Below are positions 15,479 to 16,320 of a stretch of 64,000 nucleotides of DNA, in pieces (within the stretch, counting starts at the first letter, position 1; every line of letters starts with the position of its first letter). The notes under the pieces were generated by a model that was not told where the DNA came from, ran no database searches, and saw nothing but the letters and a program-made list of their open reading frames with translations. The position numbers and the translations under genes are program-made. The DNA is from Botryllus schlosseri (taxonomy: Eukaryota): contig CM119371.1 in the NCBI GenBank assembly GCA_051294905.1, positions 8,310,001 to 8,374,000 of the forward strand, given 5' to 3'.

Positions 15479-16320
15479 ATGGAATTATCACGAGCATCAC
15501 CTTCGCTCACTGAAGAAAAGGATGAAATTACATCCGGAGCATATTCCTTGGCGAGGAATTATATCATGTACGAACTCGACGGCTCATGCGTTAAGGCAAA
15601 TACGAAAGCAGAGAGAACCTTACGGCGAGTTGGGGATGAAATGTTTGAGCGACACCGAACTATCGTAAACGCGCTCTCCAAACGTCTTCGCTATAGTGAT
15701 GTAGAAGTCAATGAAAAATATGAAGAATATTCACCCGACGAGCGAATGTTCCTGATGATAGCTGATGGAATTTTCAAAGATGCCCAAGAAAATTGGGGCA
15801 GGATTGTCTCCCTTTTTGTGGTCGCTAGCATTCTTGCTCGGAATAAGGAGGATGAACATCGCGGTGATCATATAGAAGGTATCATACAGACAGTTGGGAA
15901 TTACATTGGTAGTAGAAGACGAAAGTGGATAGCGCAAAACGGAGGATGGGTAAGCGATTTTACAAGCCTTACTAAGGATTTAGGAATTATTATCTATAGC
16001 TCGAGGTACTACGATCCCCAGAACCCTTATCATCCCTCGATAGGGAACCTTAGATTCCACCTTATAATTTTGTTCTCAACTTTTCCCACAAAGCACTGTA
16101 ATTTACTTTCCAAGCGCAGCGAACTTCGAATTACCTAACAAGTAGGCTACGCTAACTTTCTGTAAGATTTGGAAGGCTAACATTTTTATTATTGTTTCAG
16201 GACAGTTTTGTAGGATATTTCGATAACACAACATTCGGTAACAATAAAGTTTGGAAGAGTCTCATGTTTGCTGGAATTGGACTGATGTCTATTGCAATGG
16301 CATTAACACGACAGCGATAA
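15479..16320 (+). CDS. Bcl-2 family protein, 2 exons (15479-15949, 16201-16320), 196 aa with C-terminal membrane anchor
   Basis: BH3 LRRVGDEM, BH1 NWGRIVSLF, BH2 WIAQNGGW|DSFVGYF joined across a GTAAGC...CTAAC...TTTCAG phase-0 intron; exon 2 ends in LMFAGIGLMSIAMALTRQR. Confidence 0.93.

Follow-up and report, generated by a model that had tools for sequence, protein, structure and literature searches.

The window analysed here is a stretch of 64,000 nucleotides from Botryllus schlosseri (assembly GCA_051294905.1, contig CM119371.1, positions 8,310,001 to 8,374,000 of the forward strand), and coordinates below count from its first letter. It contains an integrated Polinton-like element that carries, near its left end, a gene for a Bcl-2-like protein (15479-16320, + strand). 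We propose, with a probability of roughly 80%, that this is a two-exon, element-borne gene which was captured as genomic DNA from a host gene on contig 14, is spliced, serves as pro-survival cargo and has spread in element families.

The gene is organised as two exons separated by an intron, which is in phase 0 because exon 1 is 471 nt long. Exon 1 (15479-15949, +) consists of 157 codons and includes a BH3-like segment (LRRVGDEM), BH1 (NWGR) and BH2 up to its GGW. The intron (15950-16200, +; 251 nt) begins with GTAAGC at 15950, carries CTAAC at 16177-16181 and ends with TTTCAG at 16195-16200. Exon 2 (16201-16320, +) comprises 39 codons and a stop; its translation, DSFVGYFDNTTFGNNKVWKSLMFAGIGLMSIAMALTRQR, supplies the rest of BH2 (DSFVGYF) and a tail anchor, SLMFAGIGLMSIAMALT. 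The anchor is a 17-residue stretch with a mean hydropathy of 1.84, flanked by K and RQR, and it is present only when the intron is removed. In vivo, removal of the intron would join GGW to DSFVGYF and the tail anchor, giving a spliced product of 196 aa. The sole long frame at the gene is an open reading frame (ORF) of 219 aa at 15479-16138, which continues for 62 codons past GGW into the intron.

A Pfam search with the 219-aa ORF detected PF00452 (Bcl-2; E = 1.2e-20, 74 bits, the cut-off being 31.4); for exon 1 the value is E = 4.7e-21. The match covers the full profile (100 positions) on residues 48-157, so that its last residue is the W of GGW. A sequence-only reading of the window had claimed that Bcl-2 character is lost after GGW, at GTAAGC (15950), and the profile ends exactly at that W. 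It had also claimed that joining to TTTCAG (16200) restores GGW-DSFVGYF and a hydrophobic tail, which is borne out by the homology of exon 2 to exon 3 of the contig-14 host gene (tblastn E = 2.5e-10 against that locus); exon 2 resembles in addition the C-terminus of the Styela clava protein XP_039252627. Among solved structures, the top relatives of the exon 1 protein are Mcl-1 (E = 2e-10), BCL2L10 and A1, with Bax ranking behind, and the alignments to Mcl-1 show the motifs LRRVGD, NWGR and GGW. Word-based protein searches with exon 1 detected no relatives, and neither did a scan of viral contigs with the Bcl-2 exon. A word-based search using exon 2 plus one extra codon against longer proteins gave no match, and no spliced protein record was retrieved. 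The segments 15479-15949 and 16201-16320 appear to make up a two-exon gene for a Mcl-1/Bcl-2-like protein with a predicted C-terminal membrane anchor.

According to the available part of PMC7527217, almost all metazoan bcl-2 genes have an intron that splits BH2 directly after a TGG codon. The junction TGG/GTAAGC at 15949/15950 conforms to this description, as does the corresponding site of the host gene, and the assertion that the intron occupies a conserved BH2 position is thereby confirmed.

The donor was traced through an exhaustive protein-library search with exon 1, which returned 262 proteins at E ≤ 0.001. The best of them (P0001, 241 aa, 50% identity) is XP_039252627, named “bcl-2-like protein 2 [Styela clava]”, which past BH2 reads GGW-AGFIKFFDD...KVWKGL...GRQ. 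Among the 14 best library proteins, nine read GGWVS or GGWVC, as expected of gene calls that run into an intron starting with GTRAG or GTNTG; four have a BH2-like continuation, and one is an N-terminal fragment. In the animal's own genome, the best match to P0001 lies on contig 14. In coordinates of the L029 reverse complement, exon 1 of this gene occupies 977-1090 (38 codons), intron 1 occupies 1091-1494 and ends with TTGCAG, exon 2 (1495-1968) ends with GGW, intron 2 (1969-2152, 184 nt) starts with GTACGC, and exon 3 (2153-2266, stop included) starts with DNFVRFF. The GGW intron is thus in the same place as in the element gene, which answers the call of the sequence-only reading for a comparison with the exon structure of host Bcl-2 genes. 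Host exon 1 agrees with the N-terminus of the Styela protein in 17 of 38 residues (E = 3e-6). The stretch of host exon 1 and intron 1 has one full-length match in the genome, accompanied by partial matches of 92-96% on a small contig and weak fragments elsewhere. Judged by these homologies, contig 14 carries the single-copy orthologue, built of three exons, of the Styela clava gene for bcl-2-like protein 2.

DNA homology between the window and the host gene is divided into two blocks, the first from 27 nt before host exon 2 (window 15450) to 32 nt inside the intron, and the second from 22 nt before the acceptor to window 16305. In L030, L033, L036 and L037, diverged relatives of the window copy, a single alignment crosses host intron 2 from end to end and continues for about 120 nt beyond the stop. 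Across copies, homology extends from host position 1383-1471 to about 2388, which leaves a host intron 1 remnant of 27-112 nt; several subfamilies align at least 110 nt into host intron 1, and in one subfamily the element intron has 184 nt, the same length as host intron 2. In the window, the remnant of host intron 1 corresponds to 15450-15478 (+) in the alignment with the contig-14 gene, and the host acceptor TTGCAG has become CT-CAA. The element ATG stands at the place of the second codon (AAA) of host exon 2. All 13 representative copies read CT-CAA ACC/AAT/AGC ATG G where the host has TTGCAG followed by ACC AAA G; as these changes are common to all of them, the acceptor decay and the new start codon arose once.

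An intron orthologous to host intron 2, together with the remnant of host intron 1 and the 3' flank, directly supports the view that the gene was captured as genomic DNA and not as a retrocopy, as had been suggested from the window alone. A genomic piece of about 1.1 kb, reaching from host intron 1 to about 120 nt past the stop, would have been captured once. It would have retained the ancient BH2-splitting intron, while exon 1 was lost and a new ATG was formed at the second codon of host exon 2.

The opposite direction would make the contig-14 gene a domesticated element copy that gained its upstream exon later. The tree, in the form (Styela, (host, (13 element copies))), permits this by itself, the host gene being sister to all element copies (element clade 99/98, host-element grouping 100/99), and its midpoint root is only a drawing aid. 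The direction of capture is therefore read from host exon 1 and the intron 1 remnant and not from the root. The homology of host exon 1 to the Styela N-terminus implies that the three-exon build predates the elements, and upstream of their ATG the elements can be aligned to the final part (3') of host intron 1, decayed acceptor included. The single full-length match of the host exon 1/intron 1 stretch also speaks against domestication, as does a search of the 10 kb downstream of the host gene, which revealed no element protein. We consider a host gene of element origin hardly credible. At the protein level, exon 1 of the element gene shows 72% identity with the host gene and 48-52% with the Styela protein.

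Sister copies were sought in the genome of 495.5 Mb on 219 contigs. A DNA search with the gene produced 399 first-look candidates, and the best 40, which were scored, include ten at 93-100% identity, the rest being at 81-86%; a protein search produced 576 first-look candidates, 150 of which were scored. In total, 54 distinct element copies were fetched, 34 in a first set and 20 chosen across ORF-length classes. The table of the first set has 38 rows, since it lists the host gene twice and two duplicate loci in addition to the 34 copies. Every copy of the first set shows TGG/GT...AG/GA (or AA). In the second set, GT-AG is present in 17 of 20; one copy has GC-AG (L060), one is dead at both sites and carries a stop in GGW (L064), and L063 has no exon 2 within the fetched piece. 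Thus GT...AG is kept at the exact positions in 51 of 54 copies, and the splice sites, on whose fate in sister copies the sequence-only reading had made its case depend, turn out to be conserved.

Lengths of the intron and of the exons behave differently among copies. Introns fall into classes of 58, 183-185, 197-199 and 227-263 nt, which represent all three classes modulo 3, and indels of 1, 2, 5, 6 and 17 nt are common in them. Exon 1 is 471 or 474 nt long in every copy examined; it has no indel in any of the 28 aligned copies and no frame-shifting indel among the 54. Exon 2 has an indel in one of the 28. As intron lengths occur in all classes modulo 3, only splicing can keep exon 2 in frame across copies. 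By our count, the ATG and both exons are open in about 45 of the 54 copies.

These data bear on the possibility that the intron is normally retained and that the working product is the 219-aa read-through, with a different and non-anchored C-terminus as in beta-type isoforms. The ORF at 15479-16138 exists, as the sequence-only reading stated when it raised such an isoform, and a truncated isoform reading 84 nt into the intron is cited for the gene of herpesvirus of turkeys in the available part of PMC7199394. The length of the frame is, however, confined to the closest relatives of the window copy: from copy to copy, 3-69 codons are read before a stop closes the read-through frame, which extends for 60-62 codons only in the six closest of the 28 aligned copies and for 10-15 codons in 21 of them (15 in most). 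The tail is therefore not conserved, and the proposed isoform shows no sign of selection on it. Its best hydrophobic stretch reaches a mean hydropathy of 1.05, against 1.84 for exon 2. Frame-shifting intron indels are common, and exon 2 is open and indel-free although it lies in a frame other than that of exon 1 in about two thirds of the copies. Regular retention of the intron appears very improbable to us, and splicing of the two exons is the reading we keep.

Some of our observations weigh against that reading, and the first come from sequencing reads. Four runs were mapped, with a splice joint listed only from at least three reads, and no cis-splice joint was listed in any of them; the junction reads 15949/16201 proposed as a check on splicing were accordingly not obtained, and the case for splicing rests on comparative evidence. 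Run X1, with even coverage of the intron, behaves like DNA. The stranded run X17 (read to about 6%) yielded 17 reads, with sense-strand depth on 15435-15669 and 15858-15951, zero depth on 15952-16186 (five bins) and depth again on 16187-16280. This pattern is weakly compatible with two or three spliced reads, and it proves nothing. The sole spliced reads at the acceptor carry a leader instead of exon 1 and go on towards the ATPase gene of the element, and the acceptor may also, or mainly, serve another transcript.

The leader-bearing reads are 13 reads of run X21, derived from a copy about 95% alike, in which about 65 foreign letters directly precede 16199 (join 16199/16201), so that the leader is attached exactly at the acceptor (16200/16201). 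The foreign letters comprise ACATGGGG, which we take to be the end of a template-switch oligo, and after it a 24-nt sequence ending in TATTAAG. Followed by GT, the 24-mer has 101 exact matches in the genome, while the reversed control has none. Two of the seven loci viewed have an Sm-site-like AATTTTGG/AGCTTTGG about 40 nt downstream, and two other occurrences look like retro-copied, leader-bearing messengers. The leader loci viewed include L074, L077, L041 and L038. We read the 24-mer as a putative spliced leader, trans-spliced onto the exon 2 acceptor in a sister copy; a literature search for this leader brought up no paper on it. Since the leader is joined at the AG, the spliceosome would use the exon 2 acceptor in vivo in that copy.

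Accordingly, the acceptor at 16200 might exist mainly for trans-splicing, producing a messenger composed of the leader, exon 2 and the ATPase gene, with exon 2 as 5' untranslated region. In addition to the leader reads, the genomic matches of the 24-mer, the Sm-like sites and the retro-copied messengers, the resumption of X21 depth at 16431-16562 fits such a transcript. Against it, X21 depth does not show continuity from 16375 to 16431, and variants of the source copy match at best three of six diagnostic sites in any of the 28 aligned copies; that copy may be devoid of exon 1 or its donor site, and the leader is itself a putative one. A main role in trans-splicing is unlikely in our estimate, although it deserves more weight than the alternatives weighed above, and it is compatible with a two-exon Bcl-2 gene that is cis-spliced.

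Selection on the coding sequence was assessed on exon 1 and exon 2 together. The ratio of non-synonymous to synonymous substitution rates (dN/dS) is 0.21-0.40 between deep subfamily pairs and 0.14-0.17 between element copies and the host gene, at dS of about 1.2, whereas between close copies it reaches 0.50 and 0.84. In exon 1, variable columns amount to 73 at third positions compared to 46 and 43 at the other two (each of 157), which is a coding signature. The remaining points that speak against our reading concern exon 2, the condition of the copies and the function of the product. Exon 2 has no excess of third-position changes (15, 15 and 11 variable columns of 37) and is weakly constrained alone; its ratio of non-synonymous to synonymous differences (pN/pS) lies between 0.24 and 0.75, and in one pair 13 non-synonymous changes stand against 0 synonymous ones. 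What speaks for exon 2 is therefore an open frame that lacks indels, a hydrophobic tail that has been preserved, and the homology of this tail to those of the host and Styela proteins. Again by our count, about nine of the 54 have suffered damage in the form of stop codons, loss of the ATG or shortening of the tail. Among the best 40 of 399 DNA candidates scored, at least ten Bcl-2 copies show at least 93% identity, against 35 open copies of the capsid-like gene of the element at 96% or more. One copy with a 99% identical capsid gene has no Bcl-2 cassette and matches the window only from 16309 on. Finally, proteins of this build in the Bcl-2 family can promote death as well.

Several of these points would be expected if the cassette were passive baggage, a decaying host fragment whose splice sites seem conserved only through the youth of the copies: the high dN/dS between close copies, the lack of a codon-position signal in exon 2, the damaged copies and the cassette-free element. 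Between subfamilies, however, the intron has diverged to K of 0.18-0.46, yet dN/dS stays at 0.21-0.40 and GT/AG are kept. The low dN/dS towards the host gene at the dS given above and the freedom of exon 1 from frame-shifting indels in all 54 copies also contradict mere decay. Passive baggage is in our judgement improbable, if a little less so than regular intron retention, and a maintained gene remains the preferred reading. The missing cassette in a nearly identical element copy indicates that the left accessory module is variable cargo, dispensable for the element.

The carrier element extends over 12176-38964 and is bounded by 6-bp target-site duplications, CATGGA, at 12170-12175 and 38965-38970. 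Its terminal inverted repeats are 477 nt long, the left one (12176-12652, +) beginning with AGTAGTG and being 100% complementary to the right one (38488-38964, -). An ordinary host gene into which an element had landed was considered as an explanation of the locus and rejected, as the gene is enclosed by the repeats and the target duplication and recurs with the element. The Bcl-2 gene would then be an accessory gene carried near the left end of an integrated, Polinton/Maverick-like element that encodes a probable capsid protein.

Between the left repeat and the Bcl-2 gene, three ORFs are located on the opposite strand. The first (12823-13368, -; 181 aa) has no Pfam match and belongs to no named family. 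The second (13322-13903, -; 193 aa) is a gene similar to those of inhibitors of apoptosis (IAP), with one BIR domain (PF00653, E = 2.9e-18), and its nearest solved relatives are the BIR domains of NAIP, cIAP1 and XIAP (E = 4e-40 to 1e-21). It lies 1.6 kb from the Bcl-2 gene, and its frame overlaps the 181-aa ORF on the same strand by 47 nt; the two may be exons of one gene, or a single gene with a frameshift. The third is a small conserved ORF (14682-14960, -; 92 aa) with no Pfam match. Its region is 72% similar in DNA to a 143-aa ORF upstream of the diverged Bcl-2 cassette in L036, and the ORF is possibly a further accessory gene in the left module. Judging by family membership, the Bcl-2 and IAP-like products could act together against apoptosis and keep the host cell alive while the element is active.

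To the right of the Bcl-2 gene lie a packaging ATPase (16535-17152, +; 205 aa; Pfam Pox_A32, E = 8.6e-09), an integrase with a C-terminal chromodomain (17914-18912, +; 332 aa; rve, PF00665, E = 2.1e-14; Chromo, E = 2.4e-08) and a probable double-jelly-roll major capsid protein (20999-22276, +; 425 aa). The capsid assignment comes from a sub-threshold match to DJR-like_dom (E = 0.0095) and from the nearest Atlas clusters, which score 0.98 and have PF21738 in 24-30% of their members; a scan of viral contigs with this ORF detected no relatives. Several ORFs of no family lie between the integrase and the capsid-like ORF. For a 289-aa ORF, Atlas neighbours are partly labelled Preplasmiviricota, which is a lead only. 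Comparison of the other element ORFs with PHROGs and Pfam gave nothing beyond a weak ATPase match, and no protease was recognised among the element proteins. No polymerase gene was found in the element, in which the capsid-like ORF of 425 aa is the longest and the remaining ORFs have no Pfam match. A search of the whole genome with PF03175 gave 0 matches, which does not demonstrate absence since 14 control genomes were silent too. The element shares with Polintons/Mavericks the 6-bp duplication, the 477-nt terminal inverted repeats, the rve integrase and the packaging ATPase. As a polymerase gene, the defining criterion in the available part of PMC5499653, was not found, we term it Polinton-like and do not file it as a Polinton.

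This copy alone has a palindrome of 13.4 kb (22912-36348). Complementarity is 100% between the arms (23047-28331 and 30961-36245) and 98% between the inner arms, and there is no ORF of 150 aa or more inside. Sister copies on contigs 8 and 3 match the window from 12385 or 12741 to 22911 at 97.6-98.7% and then pass straight to 36349; the palindrome is therefore a nested insertion of the window copy. The family normally measures about 14-15 kb, and the window copy is swollen by the insertion. Near the right end, a unit of about 515-610 nt (37332-37938) occurs one to two times in the window and about six times in tandem in the contig 3 copy. For the capsid-like gene, the genome gave 274 candidates, of which 99 were scored; with 35 of them open at 96% identity or more, the family looks young.

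Relationships around the gene differ among its copies. Seven further copies share the full 3.8 kb around it at 96-99% identity, and diverged families (L030, L032, L033, L036 and L037; blastn, 81-86%) share with the window only the Bcl-2 cassette at 15416-16311 (+). In another family, represented on contig 2 (~ 2.212-2.216 Mb) and contig 4 (~ 1.878-1.882 Mb), the first exon of Bcl-2 and the capsid gene point towards each other at a distance of only about 2.5 kb. The capsid-like gene of this family is 70% identical to that of the window, and exon 2 was not found in the piece fetched (L063), which suggests a different placement or a truncated cassette.

Among the 150 scored matches, about 57 convergent Bcl-2 pairs, 3-16 kb apart, were counted by eye. 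Two were inspected, L037 (contig 1, ~ 28.02-28.04 Mb) and L036 (contig 9, ~ 13.23-13.25 Mb). Both are near-perfect palindromes with a centre of 33-35 nt, and each arm has an intact, inward-pointing Bcl-2 cassette. Each side of the contig 1 palindrome is bordered by a stretch with 81% similarity to the terminal repeat of the window element, with a fragment of the 181-aa ORF (95.6% amino acid identity) beside both ends. It resembles a pair of left arms from an element of this kind, placed head to head in a snap-back-like structure, as far as sequence can tell. Some perfect palindromes could be assembly artefacts. After its capture, the cassette may have spread to several element families, to be found now mostly in palindromic derivatives made of two left arms.

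A wider scenario can be offered tentatively. A Polinton-like virus family, with capsid and integrase genes, would have stolen an Mcl-1-like gene as genomic DNA and have it next to an IAP-like gene, and palindromic defective derivatives would have amplified it to several hundred largely intact copies under purifying selection. The element population might then tune the cell-death threshold of the host, with the acceptor doubling as a spliced-leader site for the packaging gene. We regard this combination as possible but doubtful.

Bcl-2 homologues of viruses are well known, yet the event of capture itself can hardly ever be seen. In the present case, donor and captured copies occur in one genome, and the marks of capture can be seen in the break inside intron 1, the newly made start codon and the orthologous BH2 intron. 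This would show that a Polinton-like element can take host genes by DNA recombination and not via a messenger, and it provides a concrete case of an intron-bearing gene for this class of elements. The scale of the phenomenon (the first-look and scored matches of the protein search, most of the latter in convergent pairs within palindromes) raises the question of whether elements gain from survival genes, and the copy number also that of whether so many of them alter host apoptosis.

Among known systems are the cellular relatives. The element gene has in common with the host gene and with Styela XP_039252627 the BH3-like, BH1 and BH2 segments, the tail anchor and the intron after GGW. Unlike the host gene, it has no counterpart of the 38-codon first exon and is read from a new ATG, and the introns have drifted to 58-263 nt. 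Mcl-1, BCL2L10 and A1 are similar over residues 21-157 (E = 2e-10 to 2e-7), including LRRVGD, NWGRIV and GGW; identity to them is only about 30%, and the element protein has no long PEST-type N-terminus.

With respect to carriers, vertebrate Mavericks described in PMC8097293 (available part) resemble the window element in 6-bp target duplications, terminal inverted repeats and genes for integrase, ATPase and (in the window element, probably) capsid; the same part contains the statement of the survey authors that no introns are reported in intact vertebrate Mavericks. Adintoviruses carry homologues of Bcl2 and IAP (PMC8502044, available part), the same anti-apoptotic accessory pair on a carrier of broadly the same type, with integrase, packaging ATPase and (probably, in the window element) capsid genes. 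In contrast to the window element, in which none was found, they have a PolB gene. As far as available, the main text of PMC8502044 contains nothing on introns or donor genes of these homologues (“splice” does not occur, and “intron” occurs once, in a context elsewhere). In literature on Polintons/Mavericks with Bcl-2, IAP, apoptosis or cargo, no intron-bearing Bcl-2 gene or its donor was found described. The giant Gypsy retrotransposons Burro of planarians are likewise mobile elements with BIR and BCL2-like modules, for which the authors propose meddling with host cell death (PMC6431247, available part). Differently from the element studied here, Burro is a retroelement, and its modules are domains of a polyprotein and not a separate spliced gene.

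A further parallel is vNr-13 of herpesvirus of turkeys. Following the available part of PMC7199394, it is also a virus-borne, host-derived Bcl-2 gene with GGW and the cellular build of two exons and one intron, present in two identical copies in inverted repeats and having the truncated isoform that reads into the intron. It differs in its carrier, a herpesvirus instead of an integrating Polinton-like element, and in being a relative of Nr-13/BCL2L10, while the gene described here is Mcl-1-like. Unlike vNr-13, the present gene has its donor in the same genome, the remnant of a second intron marks the break of capture, and copies number in hundreds. Homologues of this kind are already known, and the feature in the window is an unusually well documented virus- or element-borne Bcl-2 homologue with a cellular intron.

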